Assembly (NCBI GenBank): GCA_964291215.2
Contig: OZ219791.1
Coordinates: 1,952,001-2,016,000 of the forward strand
Origin: Alphaproteobacteria bacterium
GTDB taxonomy: Bacteria > Pseudomonadota > Alphaproteobacteria > MPNO01 > UBA830
Direction of reading: 5' to 3'
DNA length: 64,000 nucleotides
Below, in pieces: positions 5,752 to 63,784 of the stretch. The notes below the pieces were generated by a model that saw nothing but the letters and a program-made list of their open reading frames with translations, had not been told where the DNA came from and did not search any database. The position numbers and the translations under genes were made by a program. Every line of letters begins with the position of its first letter. Within the stretch, counting starts at the first letter, position 1.

Positions 5752-6705
5752 CTACCTGAGCCGTTCGACAAAAAGGCTCCAGAAGTATTCGGCGGCACCC
5801 TCCATGGTGAGAGGGCTGTCGCCGGCTCGTCCGAAATGCGCCATCCCCAGAGGCTGGAGAAGCAGCGTGTAGCCGTCGTCGGACACGGACATCGACTCAT
5901 TGTAACTGTTCCCGCTGCCCAGACCGCCTGACGAGTAGTAGACCCCGTCGGTGCCCAAAGGGCCGCCCAACCAGATGCCGCAAACTGCCCGTTCCTCGCC
6001 CCCGACGAAGGCTCTCGCCTCGAAGCGGTTGGCGTCGACCTGTCGAAAGCTGGTTTCCACCCTGTCGTTTCGTGCTTGGAGTTCATTCAAGGAGTTCTCG
6101 AAATAACGGGCGACATACTCGAACGATGCACCAAGAAAGGCGTGGCGATCGCGGTCGGTGAACTCGGTCCTGATCCTGAGATTGCTCGAACGCGGACCTG
6201 ACGCTGCCGCGTCGGCGCGGGCGGCGGCAGATTCCGTAGGTTCCGCTACAGAAGACCGGGTGTGTGCCGTGTGTGCTGTGTCCGCCACCTGGCGAATGGC
6301 TTGGGCGACTTCCAGAAAGCCGTCGTCCAGGATTGCATGCTTGGTGACGGGCTTACCGTCCTCGGGGACTGCCATCAGGCGGCCGAATGGCGCTCCTTTC
6401 CAATCGCAGGGGCGGAGGATGACGGGGATGACGCGAGCTTCGCCGCGACCGTGACGCTCCAGCGCGCGCGTTATCTCGACATCGTAGCAATAGTCGGAGG
6501 CGATGAAGTCGGCGCTGACCAGCAACAGGATGATGTCGGCCGTGTCGAGTTGCTCGCTGATCTGGTCGTGGAGTCCGTCGCCCGGAACGATGCGGCGGTC
6601 GTGCCAGGTGGTGATCGCACCCTGGCGTTTCAGGCCCGCAAGGTACTTCTCGAGCTCGTTTCTGAGATCTTCGTCCGTGTGCGAATAGGACATGAAGACA
6701 TGCAT
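5752..6705 (-). CDS. TIR domain protein with uncharacterised C-terminal domain
   Basis: VFMSYSHTD, WHDRRIVPG, ADIILLLVSADFIASDYCYDVE (catalytic Glu position), VIPVILRPCDW; GGAG upstream of ATG 6705. Confidence 0.92.
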   Translation of the reverse strand: MHVFMSYSHTDEDLRNELEKYLAGLKRQGAITTWHDRRIVPGDGLHDQISEQLDTADIILLLVSADFIASDYCYDVEITRALERHGRGEARVIPVILRPCDWKGAPFGRLMAVPEDGKPVTKHAILDDGFLEVAQAIRQVADTAHTAHTRSSVAEPTESAAARADAAASGPRSSNLRIRTEFTDRDRHAFLGASFEYVARYFENSLNELQARNDRVETSFRQVDANRFEARAFVGGEERAVCGIWLGGPLGTDGVYYSSGGLGSGNSYNESMSVSDDGYTLLLQPLGMAHFGRAGDSPLTMEGAAEYFWSLFVERLR

Positions 6706-6910
6706 GGCTGCTGGAACTCCCTGGTGGCTCCGTGACAATTCGGCCTTGAGGGCCGGAGGCGTGCTGGATCGTCCGCAGCGCGGCCCGGCCGAAAATAGTG
6801 GTTTATGCCGTTACTGCCTCGAAATGGGAACGATGTCGCTGAAGCTCAATGCGCAACGGCGAACACGAGGGGTTTCTCTTGCGCGCAAGGCTACAAGCTC
6901 TTTGCGCCAT

Positions 6911-7240
6911 TCAGGAGCGATAGACCAGTTCGGGGAGCACGATGCTCCAACGGTCCCGGCGGAGCCGGGATCGGAAGTCCTCGCCGGAATCCGATTGAAA
7001 GCGCGTTGCGATCGCATAAGCGCTGCCGTCCACGAAGGTAGAACCTTCTGGCGGCGCGAACTTCCTGGCCAGGCGCCCGATCGCAACGCTATCCCGGTCG
7101 ACGCTCAACCGACGGTCGCCGTCCTGTTTGAGGTCGACAGCATCGCCCGTCGCAATTCTGTCGAGGGACCGCAGCGCCCGATGTCCATGGGCCAGTCGCC
7201 CCGTGAATTCCAAATCGACCTCCGAGGGATTGAGCGTCCG
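6911..7240 (-). pseudogene. C-terminal remnant of a large RecQ/UvrD-fusion helicase, cut by IS1634 (continues about 9042-9115)
   Basis: RTLNPSEVDLEFTGR...IGRLARKF...RDRWSIVLPELVYRS resembles the recalled C-terminus of these helicases; the same frame continues across the IS (DGPAVAHRALDGNSLDVADCRKI). Confidence 0.6.
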
Positions 7241-7244
7241 CTAG

Positions 7245-9037
7245 ACCGAAGTTCCGTATGATTTCAGCGGGAGAATCACACCAAGTGATTATTGGTAAAA
7301 TTGCATGATGGCGACATGGATATATTCCCATGTAACGGTGAATTTTACTCTTTACAAAATACGATGCAATGCCTGTATGCGTTGCCATGTGCGTCGACAT
7401 CGTCCCCAACCGCAATTCGCCCCCCGCCGTCCTCCTGAGCGAAGGATGGCGCGAGAACGGAAAGGTCAGGAAACGCACCATCGCCAATCTTTCCTCCTGG
7501 CCCATGGAGAAGGTGGAGACCCTGCGGCGTCTCTTGAAGAACGAACCCCTGGTTAGCCGTGCCGATGCCTTCGACATCGTCCGCTCCCTTCCTCATGGCC
7601 ATGTGGCCGCGGTGCTGGGAACCCTGAAGAAGCTGGACCGGCGGATCGACCCGAAGCCCTCTCCCAGGCGGGACCGGGTGCTGGCCCTGATCGTGGCGAG
7701 GCACCCGCTTCGAAGCTGGCCACGGGGCTGGCCGAGGCCACCGCGGCGAGTACCCTGGGCGAGATCCTCGAGGCGGAAGGGGACGACCTCTACGACGCCT
7801 GGCTCCTGGAGCGCCAGGAGAGGATCGAGCGGTCTCTGGCGGCACCTCGAAGAGGGCTGTCTGGTGCTCCTGACCTCGGTGTGGATGGAGGGACGAAAGT
7901 GTCCCTTGGCCCGACGCGGGCACTCCCGGGATGGCAAGAAGGGCAAGCTGCAGTCGGCCTTCTGTGTGATCGGGACGGGTGTCGGTGCGGGTGTTCCCCG
8001 GCAACACGGCGGATCCGGCCACGGTGTCCTCACAGATCGCCACGCTGCGGGAGCGGTTCTCCCTCGCGAAGGTGGTGGGGGACCGGGGGACCAAGGCGCG
8101 CGAGGAGGTCAAGCCTGCGGGCCAGCGCCTTGAGGGGCATCCGCGCCCTTGTGGAGGCCGGCGACGTCGAGATGTCGCTCTTCGACGAGAGAGACCTGGT
8201 GGAGATCACCAGCAATGCGTATCCCGGCGAACGCCTCATGGTGTGCCGCAACCCGCTGCTGGCCGAAGATCGGGCTCGCAAGCGCCAGGAACTGCTCAAG
8301 GCCACCGAGGCTTGAACCGATTGCCGCAGCGACACGGCGAGACAAGCGCCGCCTCGAGGGGGCCTTGAAGATCGGGGAGCGGGTCGGCAAGGTCATCGGC
8401 AGGTACAAGGTGGCGAAGCACTTCACGTGGTCCATCGACGATGACGGTGTCTTCACCTATGGGCGCGATGAGGCTGCCGCCGAGGCCAGGCTCCTCTACG
8501 TGATCCGCCTGCCGCAGAGCGCACTCGACGGTCCCGGCACGGTGCGCGCCTACAAGCGGTTGAGTTCGGTGGAACAGGCCTTCCGCAGCCTGAAGACCGT
8601 GGACCTGAAGGTGCGTCCCGTCTACCACCGCACCGGGCCCATGTCTTCCTGTGCATGCTCGCCTACTACATCGAATGGCACATGCGACTGAAGCCCATGC
8701 TGTTCGACGACGAGGATGCCGAAGGCGGCCGTCCGTCGTGGCGCCGGCAGAAGTCTCGGCGAGCACCCGGGCCAAGGCGGCAACGAAGAGGACGCCCGGG
8801 GGTGGCACAGCTTCCGTACCCTCATCGATGATCTCGCGACCATCACCCGCAACACCGTGGCGCCCCGCCTTGCGGGCGCCGAACCCTTCCAGGTCACCAC
8901 GCGGCCCACGCCGCTCCAGAGAAGGGCATTCAAACTCCTGGGCGTGCGCCTGTAGCGTTCTCGGTAGCGACACACCTGATTATTTCAAACGTCAATACAT
9001 TCATGATGATACGTCTGATCGGCGCTGGAAATTCGGG
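7245..9037 (+). mobile_element. Degenerate IS1634-family element, copy 1
   Basis: Inverted repeats ACCGAAGTTCC / GGAAATTCGGG flanked by CTAG on both sides. Transposase motifs VRKRTIANLS, GHSRDGKKGKLQ, VFPGNTADP, AFRSLKTVDLKVRPVYH are scattered over frames. Confidence 0.92.
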
Positions 9038-9157
9038 CTAGATCTTTCTGCAATCGGCAACGTCCAGACTATTTCCGTCCAAGGCGCGATGCGCCACCGC
9101 CGGTCCGTCCTGTCGTGATCTGCAGGGACTAGGACCACGACGATCCCATGCTAATTC

Positions 9158-57368: not shown

Positions 57369-60368
57369 TCAGCGCCGCCTATGCTGCCTGGAACCTGACT
57401 TCTTCGGCTGTCCTTGGGGGCGGGACCGAGCTTGCTTCAGATTGTGCGTGTAGTCGCATCGTGGGTAGTTCGAGCAGCCTAGGAAGCGGCCGAACCGTCC
57501 CATCTTCGTTTCTAGCCAGCCGTCGCAGACCGGACATCCCTCGATCGATCCCCCGCAGTCACGGCACCGGAATGTGCTGCCCGATCTGACCGGCAGCCCG
57601 GTTCCGCACTTCGGACACGATCGTTCCGTGTGCTCGCAATATGGCCAGTTGGAGCAGCCGTAGAAGACATTCCTATGACGCGCGTTTTCTCGGCGTTCCA
57701 GACGTCCCTCCTCGCACTGCGGACATGCAACATCCCCTTCCGGCAAGCGGCCGAACACGGTCACATGTTTCTTGTGGTCGATCAGTTCCGTGACAAACGC
57801 GGACGGGGGGGCGCCCTCGGCGAGCAGGAATACTTGGCGGCGTGCACGGGTCAACGCGACATAGAGCAGGCGTCGCTCCTCGGCATTGGGATACCCTTCG
57901 GGCGCCGCCATTACCAGGTCAAGCAATGGGTCGTCCGCGATCTCAACCGGAAAACCGTACTTGCCGGCGCACAGCCCGAGCACCACCACATAGTCGGCTT
58001 CCAGCCCTTTGGCGCGATGCACGGTCATGTAGCCGAATCGCAGGCCCGGATACTGCTTTGCCAGGCTGTCGAGATTCAGCGGCTGCAAATGCCGGTAGCG
58101 GCCCAGCAGCAGCACCTCCGACATTCCGTCGTGCCTTTGGGCGTCCTCGGCGATCCGGTCGAGGGCTTCCTTTAGTAGTGAGAGCCCTTTGTCGCCTGAA
58201 AGGCCTATATGCACCGCTGGTCGGTCGGCCTCGCGCGTTGCACGGACCGTCTTGCGGATCTGCGCAGGATTGCGCAGCACGAAATCGGTGGCGACCATGG
58301 CGATGCGATCCGCACACCGGAACGTGGTTTCCAGATCGATGCGTTCGAACTCGCCGAATCTCTCCCCGAATTCCCGCATGACGGCGATGTCTGACCCGCC
58401 GAACCGGAAGATCGCCTGCCAGTCGTCCCCCACTGCAAACAGCTGCGATCCCGGAGAGCGGTCGAGCAGCGCCCTTAACAATCGCGCGCGGGCGGGCGAG
58501 ATGTCCTGGAACTCGTCGACCAGAATGTAGCCGAAGGGACTGTGGTAGCGACCGGCCTCTACGTGATCGGTGGCCCGGGCGATCATGTCATGGAAGTCGA
58601 TCTCTTCGTCACGGGCGAGCGTTGCCTGATAACGTTCGAAGATCGGCCCGAACATCTTCAGAAACGCTTCTGCCCGCCCCTCGTCGTCAAGGGAACCAGC
58701 CTGCCGGGCGACCTCCTCCAAGGAACGTTGGCCGCCCTTGAAGTGCTGCAGGAAGGTCGCCAGCAGGCGGATGAATGGGTCGACCCGTCCCTGTTCTTCG
58801 AGGACTGAAAACACCTGTTCCTTTGAAAGCGGCGTCCGCTCCACACCGTGCGCCATCAGCTTTTTCTCAAGGTTCCGGATCAATCGTCCATCAGCGCGTT
58901 CGCGCGTGAAGGTCTCTATCAGGACGGTGTCTCGTTCGGTATGGACCTGCCGCTTCCACTCCATTTCCTCGAGGTATTTCTCTCGGTCAACGAACGGCGC
59001 CGTATTTCCCTCGGCGTCGAGCCCGAAGTGCTCGATATAGATACCGTGGTCCGGAAGATAGAAGTCGGGCTTGTACTGGCGCTTCTCGGCTGTCGCGGTA
59101 TCGTGCTCGTAGGATGCCTCGTACTCGTAGGCGATGCCGTTGAGATAGAGGAAGTTCGCAATTTCGCATTCCTCGTAGCTCTTCACCTTGTCACCCTTCA
59201 GCGAACGGATGTCATTCCGACGGATGTAGTTCCAGTACGCGCCCCAGTTTGGGAACTCGTGCGTGCTCTTGTAGGGCGCGAACTGATCCTGGAACCATTC
59301 CAGCATGGTCTCCGAAAGGTCGCCGCCAGCCAGCAAATCAGCGACGATGCCCTTGAGCACATCGAACAGCATCCGGTCGTTTTCCGCCGACCGGGCCAGC
59401 GCCGGACGCTTGCCTTCGGCCTCGCCGATGATCGCCATGCCTAGGCTGTGGAAAGTTCGAATCGTTACGTCGCGGGCGGTTACGGTGCCGAGCCGTCTAC
59501 CGACGCGTTCCTCCATTTCGTTCCGGGCGTCCCGTGCAAAGGCGAGCAACAGGAGCTCGGACGGCTTCCGATACCCTCTCTGGACCAGCCAGCCCGCTTT
59601 CGCCACGATGACCGAGGTCTTGCCGCTTCCCGCTGCGGCGACCACCAGATTGCGCCGCTCGTCGACGACTACCGCTCTGCGTTGTTCGTCCGTGAGCGGC
59701 CTGACCTCGATCCGGTTGAACAGGTCGCGCGACCGGACTAGCTCATTCGCGATGAATGCCTCGTTGGCCCTTGATCTGGCATTGTCCGGCGCTTCCAGGA
59801 ACTCCAGCATGGCCCTCAGTATCCGGATCTCCGGGGTGTCGGACAGGGCATCCGGCCAGTGTCCGGCTACGCCGCCGGCCACCGCCTGCGCATCCTGCAC
59901 AAGATCGTGGATGGTGTTGGAATGGACATATCCCGGTGGATCGGCAATTTGGACCAACCGGCCGTGGACGGAGCGAAGCGCACCAATCTGGGGTCCCAGC
60001 GTACTGCGCCACCATTCGATCCTCGCGGTCTCAATCGCATCCGCCAGCGCATCGGCTTCGCTTCGGGCAAGCCCCGACACGGTTATCCCGGCCGTTGCAC
60101 TGCCCAGGCTGACGCCGCTCCAGCGCCTGCCAACCTTCAGCCGGACCGATTCGATGTCCCGTAGGGCGATTTTCCTCGAGTGCAACGCGAAAGCGACCGT
60201 GACGTTGTCGGCGTTCACCGTCGCGGCCCCGGCGCTCCCCGGACGAAACACTGTGAACAGCAACGAGGTCAGTCCGGTCCGCTTCACGCAGAACCGCGAG
60301 CTTGGACTGGCCACTTCTCTGGAGGTGCTGTGCACCTCTAATCCTGCAAGTTTCGTCACTTCTGCCAT
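57369..60368 (-). CDS. UvrD/helicase IV-like SF1 helicase with inserted nuclease-like domain and C-terminal zinc ribbons
   Basis: AAAGSGKT, LVDEFQD, VGDDWQAIFRF, HRAKGLE, YVALTRAR; VKSYEE..IAN..YE..PDFYL..IEHFG insert; CPQC, GCSNWPYC, CPKC, CRDC, CPVC, GCSNYPRC. Confidence 0.92.
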   Translation of the reverse strand: MAEVTKLAGLEVHSTSREVASPSSRFCVKRTGLTSLLFTVFRPGSAGAATVNADNVTVAFALHSRKIALRDIESVRLKVGRRWSGVSLGSATAGITVSGLARSEADALADAIETARIEWWRSTLGPQIGALRSVHGRLVQIADPPGYVHSNTIHDLVQDAQAVAGGVAGHWPDALSDTPEIRILRAMLEFLEAPDNARSRANEAFIANELVRSRDLFNRIEVRPLTDEQRRAVVVDERRNLVVAAAGSGKTSVIVAKAGWLVQRGYRKPSELLLLAFARDARNEMEERVGRRLGTVTARDVTIRTFHSLGMAIIGEAEGKRPALARSAENDRMLFDVLKGIVADLLAGGDLSETMLEWFQDQFAPYKSTHEFPNWGAYWNYIRRNDIRSLKGDKVKSYEECEIANFLYLNGIAYEYEASYEHDTATAEKRQYKPDFYLPDHGIYIEHFGLDAEGNTAPFVDREKYLEEMEWKRQVHTERDTVLIETFTRERADGRLIRNLEKKLMAHGVERTPLSKEQVFSVLEEQGRVDPFIRLLATFLQHFKGGQRSLEEVARQAGSLDDEGRAEAFLKMFGPIFERYQATLARDEEIDFHDMIARATDHVEAGRYHSPFGYILVDEFQDISPARARLLRALLDRSPGSQLFAVGDDWQAIFRFGGSDIAVMREFGERFGEFERIDLETTFRCADRIAMVATDFVLRNPAQIRKTVRATREADRPAVHIGLSGDKGLSLLKEALDRIAEDAQRHDGMSEVLLLGRYRHLQPLNLDSLAKQYPGLRFGYMTVHRAKGLEADYVVVLGLCAGKYGFPVEIADDPLLDLVMAAPEGYPNAEERRLLYVALTRARRQVFLLAEGAPPSAFVTELIDHKKHVTVFGRLPEGDVACPQCEEGRLERRENARHRNVFYGCSNWPYCEHTERSCPKCGTGLPVRSGSTFRCRDCGGSIEGCPVCDGWLETKMGRFGRFLGCSNYPRCDYTHNLKQARSRPQGQPKKSGSRQHRRR

Positions 60369-60726
60369 TCATTTCGACGATGTCATAATCGACGCCAACA
60401 TCACGGAATATACTACACCTTGATATAGAGCACGGATTTTACTGGTTGTTCTTGGCTTCCTGCAAATCAAACCCCTTTCCAGATACCGTTCCCGAGACCG
60501 GAACGATTCGAAATAGGGCGTAGCCGGCTCGCGCCTGCCGATAAACGGTCCGTCGCGCGGAGGGCATCACGGCAAGTGTTCCGCCAGACCGTGGAGAAGG
60601 CAATCCTCGCGTCAGCACAGTTGCACGCATGCCCGATCCGTGTCGCTTGGATTCTATCGGTTGAGGTCGGTATAGTTCATTTCAGCAGAACGCAAGCCTT
60701 TCCGCTGGTTCGGAGACTACGACCTG

Positions 60727-63562
60727 GTGTTATGTCAGCAATGATATGTCGCACATTTGGTGCTAGACTGTCCGTCCATTCGGGATGGAGGTCGGAGTAT
60801 GAAACGCTACGTGGTGACCCTGGACGAACGGGCAGAACTTTCGGAGATCACGACCAAGGGCTCGCATCTGTCGCAAAAGGTAATCAACGCCTTGATCTTG
60901 CTCAACTGCGACGAGGGTGCGTTCAATGAATGCCAGATGACCGGGAAGGTCATTGCCGAGATTCTGCGCATCAGCATGCGCAAAGTAGACCGGGTGAAAA
61001 AGCGTTTCGTTGAAGAGGGGCTGGAGGCGGCATTGGGTGGCCGGTAAGGACGCCGTCCTACCTACATGCGAAAAGCCGACGGCACCTTCGAGGCGCGCTT
61101 GGTGGCTCTGAGTTGTGGTGAACCGCCTGAGGGTTACGCGCAATGGTCGTTGCGGCTGCTGGCCGACCGCGTTGTTGAGCTTGGTTACATTGATACCGTG
61201 TCACACGAGACGGTGCGGCGTGTTCTAAACCGAAGTTCCAGAAAATTCCGGTTGAAATGCACGTCAAGTCATTGATGCAGCGTGGTTTATCAGATTTTTC
61301 GTGCGTCATATTGTACCCATGTAATATTGTGTTAGATGCTTGACATCCATGGATTTTCCGCCCATATTCAGTAGCCATGTATATCGAATCCATCCCCAAC
61401 CGCTCGTCCCCGCCCGCCATCCTGCTCCGCGAGTCCTGTCGCGAAGCCGGAACGGTCAAGAAGCGCACCCTCGCCAACCTTTCCAAGCCCGCTCTCATCG
61501 AGGGATTGCGCATTCTGCTCAAGGGAGGAACCGCAGGTCTCGACGACGCCTCGTCCGCTCTCTCTTCCCCATGTCGCCGCGGTGCTGGGAACCCTGAAGA
61601 AACTGGACCGGCGGATCGACCCGAAGCCTTCTCCCGAGCGCGATCAGGTTTTCGCCATGATCGTGGCACGCATCCTTGAGCCCGCCTCGAAGCTGGCCAG
61701 GGGGCTGGCGACAGCGGTCAGCGCCTTGGGTGAGATGCGGAGTTGGACGAGAATGCCCTCTACGGCTCCTGGAACGTCAGGAGAGGATCCCCTGGCGGCA
61801 CCTCGAAGAGGGCTGCCTGGTGCTCCTGACTTCCGTGTGGATGGAGGGGAGAGCATGCCCCTTGGCCCAACGGGGTCATTCCCGGGATGGCAAGAAGGGC
61901 AAGCTGCAGTCGGCCTTCTGTGCGACCGGGACGGGTGTCGGTGCGGGTGTTCCCCGGCAACACCCGGCCACGGTGTCCTCACAGATCGCCACGCTGCGGG
62001 AGCGGTTCTCCTTTGCGAAGGTGGTGGGGGACCGAGGCCCGCGAGGAGGTCAAGCCTGCGGGCCAGCGCCTTGAGGGGCATCCGTTCACTGGTGGAGGCG
62101 GGTGACGATGTCGCTCTTCGACGAGAGAGACCTGGTGGAGATCACCAGCGATGTGTATCCCGGCGAACGCCTCTGCCGCAACCCCCTGCTGGATCGGGCT
62201 CGCAAGCGCCAGGAACTGCTCGAGGCCACCGAGGCTCGCACCGATTGCCGCAGCGACACGGCGCGACAAGCGCCGGGAAGATCGGGGAGCGGAAGGTCAT
62301 CGGCAGGATGGCGAAGCACTTCACGTGGTCCATCGACGACGACGGTGTCTTCACCTGTGGGCGTGATGAGGCTGCGATCGCTGCCGAGGCCAGGCTCCTC
62401 TATGTGGTCCGCCTGCCGCAGAGCGAGCTCGACGGTCCCGCGCGCCTACAAGCGGCTGAACTCCGTGGAACGGGCCTTCCGCAGCCTCAAGGACCTGAAG
62501 GTCCGTCCCGTCTACCCGAACCCCGAGTCCGCGTCTTCCTGTGTATGCTCGCCTACTACATGGCACATGCGACTGAAGCCCATGCTGTTCGACGACGAGG
62601 ATGCCGAAGGCGGCCGTCCGTCGTGGCGCCGGCAGAAGTCTCGGCGAGCGCCCGGGCCAAGGCGACAACGAAGAGGACGCCCGGAGGTGGCACAGCTTCC
62701 GCACCCTCATCGGCGATCTTGCCACCCGCAACACCGTGGCGCCCCGCCTTGCGGGCGCCGAACCCTTCCAGGTCACCACACGGCCCACGCCGCTCCAGAG
62801 AAGGGCACTCAAGCTCCTGGGCGTGAAGCCATAGTGTACCGAGACCGCTGAAATGTATCGAATGTCATTTCTATCAGATACTTAGGTCTGATCGGCTCTG
62901 GAACTTCGGTCTAAAAAAACTGCCTCAAGCCATGGCAGCGGGTTGGGTGGGTGATTCCTCCTCAAGGGAACGCCGACTTCGCCGCAGCGAAGGTGCTCGA
63001 TCGCCGCCCCGTCGCCTTCCCCGTGGTCTGCATGGATGAAACGCCCCCCGACCGGCGAGACACGGCAACCGATCGCCATGGCGCCGGGACGGGCGTAACG
63101 ACTACGAGTATCGACGTTGCGGCACCTGCAACGTCTTCATGGAACCCCTGGCCGGCAAGCGCATGACCAAGGTAACCGAGCGCAAGATCGCGCAGTTCCT
63201 GGCCGACATCGCCGAGCGCTACTAAGATGCCACCACCATCACCCTGGTGATGGACAACCTCAACACTCACCGGCCCGGCGCCTTCTATGAGGCCTACCCG
63301 CCGGACGAGGCCAAGGCCCTGTGGGACCGTTTCGAGTTCGTCTACACCCCCAAGCACGGCAGTTGGCTGAACGTGGTCGAACTCAACGTCATGATCCGCC
63401 AGTGCCTGAACCGCCGCATCGACTGCATCGAGGTGTTACGCCGGGAAGTTGCCGCCTGGCAGGCGACCGCATTCAGGCCAAGGTGGATTGGCAGTTCACC
63501 ACCGACGATGCCCGCGTGAAACTCAAACGTCTTTATCCGATATTTGACGAATGACAAGACAC
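60727..63562 (+). mobile_element. Degenerate IS630-family element interrupted by IS1634
   Basis: Ends GTGTTATGTCA / TGACAAGACAC followed by TA. HTH ORF from 60799 (WSLRLLAD, SHETVRRVL); DDE part VVCMDE, MDNLNTH, YTPKHGSWLN, ARVKLKRLYP. Confidence 0.9.
61229..62910 (+). mobile_element. Degenerate IS1634-family element, copy 2
   Basis: Perfect inverted repeats ACCGAAGTTCCAG / CTGGAACTTCGGT with a CTAA duplication (61225-61228, 62911-62914); clearly homologous to 7245-9037. Confidence 0.93.
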
Positions 63563-63784
63563 TAGTGCGGCTCCGCTGAGTGGGGCTGAGGTATGCAGCG
63601 CCGACCGGGAACTGTAAAGTCCGCCCCGGCGCAGTGCAAAGCGGGTCGTTGCCGAAATGCGCCGCCGGGTGCGTTTTGAGGGGCCGTCTCGACAGCCGCC
63701 TGTTTTGTCCCCGCAGGAGAATAGCCCGGTACTGGCGGCTTATAGCAGGCCGTCCGCGTTGGCCCTTGGTCCAAGACAGCATAA

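Follow-up and report, generated by a model that had tools for sequence, protein, structure and literature searches.

Deletions of 5 to 7 nt recur across the repeat families of an alphaproteobacterial genome and probably spread between copies by gene conversion

Deletions of 5 to 7 nt are scattered through the repeats of this alphaproteobacterial genome, in almost every multi-copy family examined and, weakly, in single-copy DNA; the pattern is solid, and the deletions likely spread between copies by gene conversion with very short tracts and tracts of 50 to 70 nt. Our best reading, which we consider probable but by no means certain, is that gene conversion between copies favors the shorter allele when the loop formed by the two measures 5 to 7 nt. 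The starting point was the window, a stretch of 64,000 nt in which the original prediction compared two damaged copies of an IS1634 insertion sequence (A and B); the deletion pattern is not special to IS1634.

The features of the window that concern the two copies are as follows.

7246..9036, + strand: IS1634 copy A, with terminal inverted repeats and a 6-bp duplication at 7240-7245 and 9037-9042
7387..8955, + strand: broken transposase gene of copy A, with 22 deletions of 5-13 nt
7843..7982, + strand: segment of copy A used in the original prediction, with deletions at 7868 (6 nt), 7953 (7 nt), and 7977 (7 nt)
60724..63565, + strand: IS630-type copy that hosts insertion B (family name read off the translation); its family has the same 5-7 nt deletions
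61230..62909, + strand: IS1634 copy B, with a 6-bp duplication at 61224-61229 and 62910-62915
61377..62834, + strand: broken transposase gene of copy B, with 37 deletions relative to a reference built for comparison
61799..61938, + strand: segment of copy B used in the original prediction, with the same deletions at 61824, 61909, and 61933

By its sequence, the element itself is an ordinary IS1634. The family is characterized by short terminal inverted repeats and a target duplication of 5-6 bp, and both A and B have inverted ends of 10 bp and a 6-bp target duplication; an Rfam search of the window gave no match. A near-intact copy elsewhere in the genome (C2:16634-18343) encodes 569 aa and scores 301 bits on NF033559 (cut-off, 100); outside the gaps, A is 91% and B 86% identical to it. 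This copy and intact relatives in a congener (G004) confirm the family consensus on which the original prediction relied, and the near-intact copy is itself without two 6-nt blocks that the G004 relatives have. None of the 26 long IS1634 copies in the genome is free of deletions (0/26). The IS1634 copies at C1:911022-913259 and C2:91531-93663 also have poly-C expansions (16 and 8 nt), which share one position close to the start of the gene.

The transposase frames of A and B are both broken, and 18 of the 22 deletions in A overlap one in B, 13 of them matching exactly; our own arithmetic puts the chance expectation at about 3 overlaps and less than 1 exact match. All eight gaps named in the original prediction lie in both copies, with coordinates matched gap by gap.

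A 7631, B 61602: gap KKL[GL]D, 6 nt
A 7868, B 61824: gap LVL[YD]LTS, 6 nt
A 7953, B 61909: gap KLQ[IEF], 7 nt
A 7977, B 61933: gap DG[CP]V, 7 nt, also a frameshift
A 8122, B 62063: gap PAG[LDWI], 11 nt
A 8493, B 62397: gap ARL[DG], 6 nt
A 8506, B 62410: gap R[TS]LP, 6 nt
A 8685, B 62570: gap MR[..]LKP, 6 nt

The aspartate lost in the LVL[YD]LTS gap is presumably catalytic, the first DDE residue. When the two segments are read in the frame of the near-intact copy, 13 of the 46 comparable codons differ and 11 of these differences are synonymous, exactly the count in which the original prediction saw a purifying-selection pattern. The dN/dS of A versus B is 0.18-0.20 from codon 70 onward and 0.30 over the whole gene. 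The accompanying premise, that dead copies could not gather a synonymous excess, has a loophole, since SNPs of this kind are also brought in by conversion: with 14-16 codons differing, dN/dS between B and three close, heavily deleted sisters is 0.25-0.56.

The genome (G000; 6.15 Mb in two contigs, C1 and C2; 99.3% complete; 16S sequence apparently alphaproteobacterial) consists of repeats over 2.09 of its 6.15 Mb, or about a third. Gaps were counted in 99 of the 106 repeat seeds with at least 6 copies, relative to a filled-in consensus, as copy-by-site counts from seeds that overlap. Gaps of 1, 2, 3, and 4 nt numbered 832, 152, 180, and 274, and those of 5, 6, 7, and 8 nt numbered 4,667, 10,852, 6,616, and 1,086; a second hump at 11-14 nt looks like adjacent pairs. 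Distinct alleles present in at least 10 copies follow the same profile, with 4, 91, 220, 148, and 21 at 4, 5, 6, 7, and 8 nt. The families affected include IS66, IS256, IS630, IS30, ISAs1, IS1634, and a group II intron (names from reading translations), and every full-length copy counted is damaged in IS1634 (26/26), in two CTAG-ended elements (37/37 and 55/55), and in the group II intron (50/50). Full-length copies carry 5-19 (n = 37) and 7-31 (n = 55) deletions in the two CTAG-ended elements and 11-76 (n = 50) in the intron; a few low-copy seeds are without any. The mean load is 16.1 deletions per kb per copy in seeds with at least 10 copies, and extrapolation over the 1.58 Mb of the genome present in at least 5 other copies gives about 20,000 lesions genome-wide, probably an upper estimate.

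Damage rises with copy number. Pairwise gaps of 5-7 nt go from 1.1 per kb in repeats with two copies to 8.1 per kb in those with at least 50, SNPs over the same range go from 45 to 29 per kb, and the ratio of deletions to SNPs climbs about 11-fold, from 0.025 to 0.28. Unbiased conversion should leave this ratio flat across copy numbers; selection acting on low-copy duplicates that are functional is a confounder here.

Single-copy DNA was compared between G000 and a sister species, G001 (93.6% identical at mutL), with 0.93 of the 5.0 Mb of G001 covered. Blocks of 5-7 nt are missing at 94 single-copy sites in G000 versus 7 in G001, gaps of 1-4 nt are near-symmetric (236 versus 205), and gaps of 8-15 nt number 55 versus 14. 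Single-copy genes (491 kb) carry 0.10 deletions of 5-7 nt per kb and the 75 kb outside them 0.63 per kb, and 33 of 47 coding deletions are in frame; the lower rate inside genes and the excess of in-frame events bear the mark of selection and therefore argue against an assembly artefact. In relatives, gaps were scored over about 400 kb each, chosen around transposases, and 5-7 nt gaps per aligned kb came to 6.26 in G002 (72% at mutL) and 0.29 in G004 (78% at mutL); repeats were too scarce for scoring in G003 (12 kb aligned) and in G001 (2 kb self-aligned). The size window in G002 is 5-6 nt, with 92, 83, and 6 distinct alleles at 5, 6, and 7 nt (from the assembly alone). The eight IS66 copies of G002 that are youngest differ very little from one another, and an alignment of them is free of gaps. 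A positive G002, a negative but closer G004, and gap-free youngest IS66 copies together indicate that the trait is patchy in the genus and needs time.

The original prediction placed the deletions after the divergence of the copies, either recurring at the same sites or copied by very short tracts that leave nearby SNPs untouched. The timing is supported, and short-tract conversion fits better than independent recurrence. On a tree of IS1634 SNPs, the deletions do not track the branches: they average 4.4 changes per site (40 rows, three sites counted twice), with 1 of 40 explained by a single event, compared with 2.6 for 84 SNP columns, a count flattered by the building of the tree from those same SNPs, and 6.5 for shuffled deletions. 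A single allele is found at 274 of 351 common deletion sites. Pairs of copies that share a deletion show a local divergence, relative to their own average, of 0.29-0.47 at 1-3 nt, 0.55-0.93 at 4-30 nt, and 0.86-1.02 beyond. We also asked whether the SNP carried by a deleted copy matched distant deleted copies or its nearest intact relative (within 1.5%); it matched the distant deleted copies in a proportion of 0.91 at 1-2 nt, 0.79 at 3-4 nt, 0.35-0.55 at 5-70 nt, and about 0.2 beyond, with intact controls at 0.06-0.21. Co-transfer of neighbouring variants thus decays with distance, a feature of ectopic conversion. The very short tracts of the original prediction stand, but nearby SNPs are not left untouched, since those at 1-4 nt usually travel with the deletion.

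Conversion certainly also runs in the ordinary two-way manner, because past 5 nt tracts are imported as often into intact copies as into deleted ones: in a symmetric test, which did not reveal one-way copying, imports at 5-70 nt were 0.48-0.63 for intact copies beside deleted relatives and 0.43-0.59 for the reverse. The two differed at 1-2 nt only (0.82 of 141 versus 0.23 of 13, with alignment bias possible), and by its construction the test makes no clean assignment of direction. Besides the copy-number trend, two observations point to a bias in conversion, its direction being less certain. The first is the frequency spectrum, in which 46% of 769 deletion alleles occur in more than 30% of copies, and minor alleles under 4% make up 65% of 3,931 SNPs versus 23% of folded deletions. 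The second is a gradient around 439 internal break ends in 22 families, where the ratio of deleted to expected sites rises from 0.72-0.77 at 15-59 nt through 0.81-0.83 at 60-299 nt to 0.90 farther out, a comparison confounded by older or diverged fragments and by sites that are not independent. The two CTAG-ended elements have zero deletions in their first and last 50 nt, and no 5-7 nt insertions were seen in IS1634 genes except for two restored blocks.

Microhomology at the deletion ends is enriched but dispensable: it is absent from 269 of 944 sites (483 expected) and reaches at least 3 nt at 241 (73 expected). The ends carry a motif. In G002, 87 of 143 deletions can begin with AT (10.6 expected), and AT stands at an end in 59 of the 90 unambiguous deletions (about 5 expected); in G000, RT stands at an end in 97 of 237 unambiguous deletions (38 expected), and the sequences that lead there are GTC, ATC, and the reverse GAC-cut-G. 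Just 3 of the 90 G002 deletions have AT at each end, versus 10.7 expected if the ends were independent, which disfavors a symmetric two-ended cut; because both ends seldom carry the motif, the sequences suggest one anchor and a ruler. The motif frequency is 0.41-0.55 in shared alleles and 0.33 in singletons, where about 0.25 is expected, and single-copy deletions lack the motif (6 of 36 versus 5.5 expected), so it likely acts at the spreading step, and the repeat and single-copy classes may differ in cause. There is no steady rise of the motif with allele frequency. No sense-strand bias was found (13 versus 10 in IS1634, 17 versus 14 in single-copy genes), and hairpin stems were not seen around the deleted block. 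Cutting centered on mismatches was rejected, there being no central SNP peak (polymorphic blocks, 0.55 versus 0.46).

If conversion does favor the shorter allele, two copies would pair in a recombination intermediate and leave a loop of 5-7 nt in the longer one, and a putative activity would excise the loop and so convert the longer copy to the shorter, giving net one-way copying. New deletions would be supplied genome-wide at a low rate, each arising once and then sweeping its family, and in such a model more copies mean more donors and thus more damage. Loops of up to 4 nt would be handled by the intact MutS and MutL, setting the lower bound of 5, and the upper bound and the motif would come from an enzyme that cuts loops, measures their length, and weakly prefers (G)AY-cut. 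Published work puts the range of efficient loop repair by bacterial MMR at up to about 4 nt and describes loop-directed repair in which the loop is removed (PMC2504288); the lower bound of 5 matches that stated MutS limit. The sharp upper limit and the near-random class of junctions (the 269 of 944 sites without microhomology) need more than escape from MutS. More tentatively, and with the balance tilting slightly against it, the whole may be a genome-defence activity, patchy and probably transferable, in which a length-measuring loop nuclease makes each recombination between repeats end in a one-way deletion of 5-7 nt, a RIP-like drive that disables multi-copy mobile elements whatever their family and spills over into single-copy DNA; such an evolved role in defence is plausible, if somewhat short of probable.

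The strong motif at one end (59 of 90 in G002, 97 of 237 in G000) and a length window that is species-specific (5-7 nt in G000, 5-6 nt in G002) would also suit an enzyme that cuts afresh, time after time, wherever repeated or paired DNA offers a hot spot defined by its sequence, with a cut at RT or AT, a measured 5-7 nt, and rejoining, while conversion, whose tracts do go both ways, adds the mosaic. We regard this as unlikely, though deserving of real weight. The motif is too weak to specify a single site, exact in its ends, in every 50 nt or so, one allele is found at the 274 of 351 sites though lengths vary genome-wide, SNPs 3-4 nt off are imported along with the deletion, and sites near break ends have fewer deletions; moreover, the Ku, ATP-dependent ligase, NucS, Piwi, TopIB, and HUH transposase families were not found in G000.

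It is improbable, in our judgment, that the genome has merely acquired a recent mutator making 5-7 nt deletions in neutral DNA everywhere, with unbiased conversion and the amplification of deleted non-autonomous copies explaining the sharing. Such a neutral model predicts equal frequency spectra for deletions and SNPs, and these are strongly different; it also sits poorly with the 11-fold rise of the deletion/SNP ratio, with a motif found in repeats and not in single-copy deletions, and with fragments that are less deleted than full-length copies. It does fit the single-copy excess (94 versus 7), the peak at 5-7 nt already seen in two-copy repeats, the homoplasy that SNPs show too (2.6 steps), the two-way tracts, and the fact that most deletions are common to B and its close sisters.

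An artefact of sequencing, amplification, or polishing in repeats is scarcely credible, given gap-free bridging of deletion junctions in separately assembled contigs, a deletion recurring in three runs, the selection seen in single-copy deletions, and the low 0.29 per kb of G004, an IS-rich congener assembled in a single contig, against 6.26 in G002. The contigs come from three runs (X1-X3) of one study and were compared with copy A and with the near-intact copy; the evidence is from contigs alone, the library type is unrecorded, and X1 is possibly the source sample. Gap-free contigs with at least 31 letters on each side span the A junctions at 7631 (X1 and X2), 7699 and 7724 (X1), and 8088 and 8098 (X3), and one of them is listed here.

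7641..7785, + strand: independent contig match from X1 with 0 differences and 0 gaps, depth 45.7, spanning the deletions at 7699 (7 nt) and 7724 (6 nt)

Of the 26 copies, A alone has the deletion at 7699, and the depth of this contig is in line with the 47.9-50.4 of the junction and end contigs of that strain. The 6-nt deletion common to A (8137) and B (62078) is present in all three runs. The presence of the deletions in sequenced DNA, on which the original prediction depends, is thereby borne out for some junctions of A; the three junctions of the predicted segment are not among the contigs listed, intact forms too occur in X1-X3, and for the near-intact copy three catalogued deletions are among the 12 indel rows listed, at low summed depth. 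A metagenome scan found no conspecific contigs (best identity, 57%). The same runs show insertion A to be polymorphic, with empty-site joints in X1-X3 and the filled junction also in X1 and X3, yet A carries 22 deletions; other joints in X1-X3 skip 1.3-1.6 kb of the element (L002:1660-3310) and suggest MITE-like, internally deleted IS1634 derivatives.

By analogy, the system works like RIP in its outcome and may work like IS gene conversion plus loop-directed repair in its mechanism. RIP, known from fungi, depends on homology and copy number and inactivates mobile elements irrespective of family, through C-to-T changes made by a methyltransferase-like enzyme at a premeiotic stage. Dependence on copy number and homology is found here as well, but the lesion observed is a 5-7 nt deletion, apparently copied from donors, and not a C-to-T change. 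Gene conversion between insertion-sequence copies was reportedly described in Wolbachia by Cordaux in 2009 (cited in PMC3205602). As here, short tracts are exchanged, copies are mosaic, and disabling lesions are shared; in contrast, we found no report there of a size window, an end motif, or a direction favoring deletions, and in the present genome most families examined are affected, at about 16 lesions per kb. Loop-directed heteroduplex repair likewise acts beyond the MutS limit of about 4 nt and removes the looped strand, but it is described for loops that can reach hundreds of nt, studied in extracts and by transfection, with no 5-7 nt window and no evolutionary sweep through repeats (PMC2504288); in the present genome, loop removal is a proposed step.

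Other known processes fit less well. In SPDIR of Acinetobacter baylyi, microindels arise when the chromosome takes up short patches of ectopic DNA (10.1101/2023.11.22.568220); these are variable-size replacements at microhomologies, versus fixed, pure deletions of 5-7 nt here, 269 of 944 without microhomology. Deletions in bacterial pseudogenes have power-law sizes with an excess at multiples of 3, and neutral DNA loses more than it gains (PMC6054270); here, shared alleles of 5 and 7 nt far outnumber those of 1-4 nt. Cleavage by NucS/EndoMS followed by end joining was rejected, as the nucS, Ku, and ATP-dependent ligase families were not found in G000 and the lesions are not mismatch-centered, and so were guided nucleases (Argonaute, CRISPR self-targeting), with no match in a Piwi search that may miss short Argonautes and no spacers matching repeats. 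A literature search for size-fixed recurrent deletions in bacterial repeats found no description; most subscription journals were outside its scope, and a prior account is possible.

G000 encodes MutS and MutL in open frames, and the same holds for MutL in all five genomes (G000-G004); recJ, xseA, polA, and a UvrC-sized GIY-YIG protein likewise have open frames in all five, so loss of MutL or of any of these does not explain the trait. Family searches found no NucS, Ku, or Piwi in G000 (short Argonautes may be missed by the Piwi search) and no TopIB, ATP-dependent ligase, RecT, S1/P1 nuclease, or Y1 HUH transposase in G000-G004, where SbcD gave no match over the cut-off and GHKL ATPases showed no pattern across genomes. 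Cas1 matches occur in all five genomes; two CRISPR arrays lie near cas1 (C1:574172-581196 and C2:2068487-2069549, with 97 and 17 repeats), and 112 spacers had no match to repeats, the 5 weak hits all falling in non-repeat DNA. DUF4007/SspB scores 290 bits in G000, 295 in G002, and a weaker 193 in G001, and was not found in G003 or G004. In G000 it belongs to an island (L279, C1:871101-882900) with a DGQHR/DndB-like protein and a cysteine desulfurase that resembles a phosphorothioate system; this island is a weak lead only. The Ssp site, which we take to be CCA, lies within deletions and not at their ends, and a neighbouring 868-aa protein has no match in G002. A Pfam scan of 100 of 538 atypical single-copy genes and 2 window genes gave no convincing candidate. 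Three other genes were observed along the way: a helicase IV-like UvrD protein of 999 aa that ends in a topoisomerase-type zinc ribbon at its C terminus (window 57369-60368, - strand), just upstream of the IS630/IS1634 nest; a TIR_2-domain gene adjoining copy A, likely a defence gene (window 5752-6738, - strand); and a 1,395-aa NACHT protein (L273:15247-19431, - strand) that, at 955 of 1,000 bits, falls just below the antiphage EruA cut-off.

Genomes of this kind resemble bad assemblies without being so. Since close positive and negative relatives exist, the gene responsible should be findable by comparison. We know of no family-blind, copy-number-sensing repeat mutagenesis in bacteria comparable to fungal RIP; the spread of shorter alleles, if true, would be an undescribed bacterial means of crippling mobile DNA. 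It would make bacterial loop-directed repair, long without an assigned basis, testable, might provide a source of an enzyme making precise short deletions, and would add a new force to the life cycles of insertion sequences and to genome reduction.
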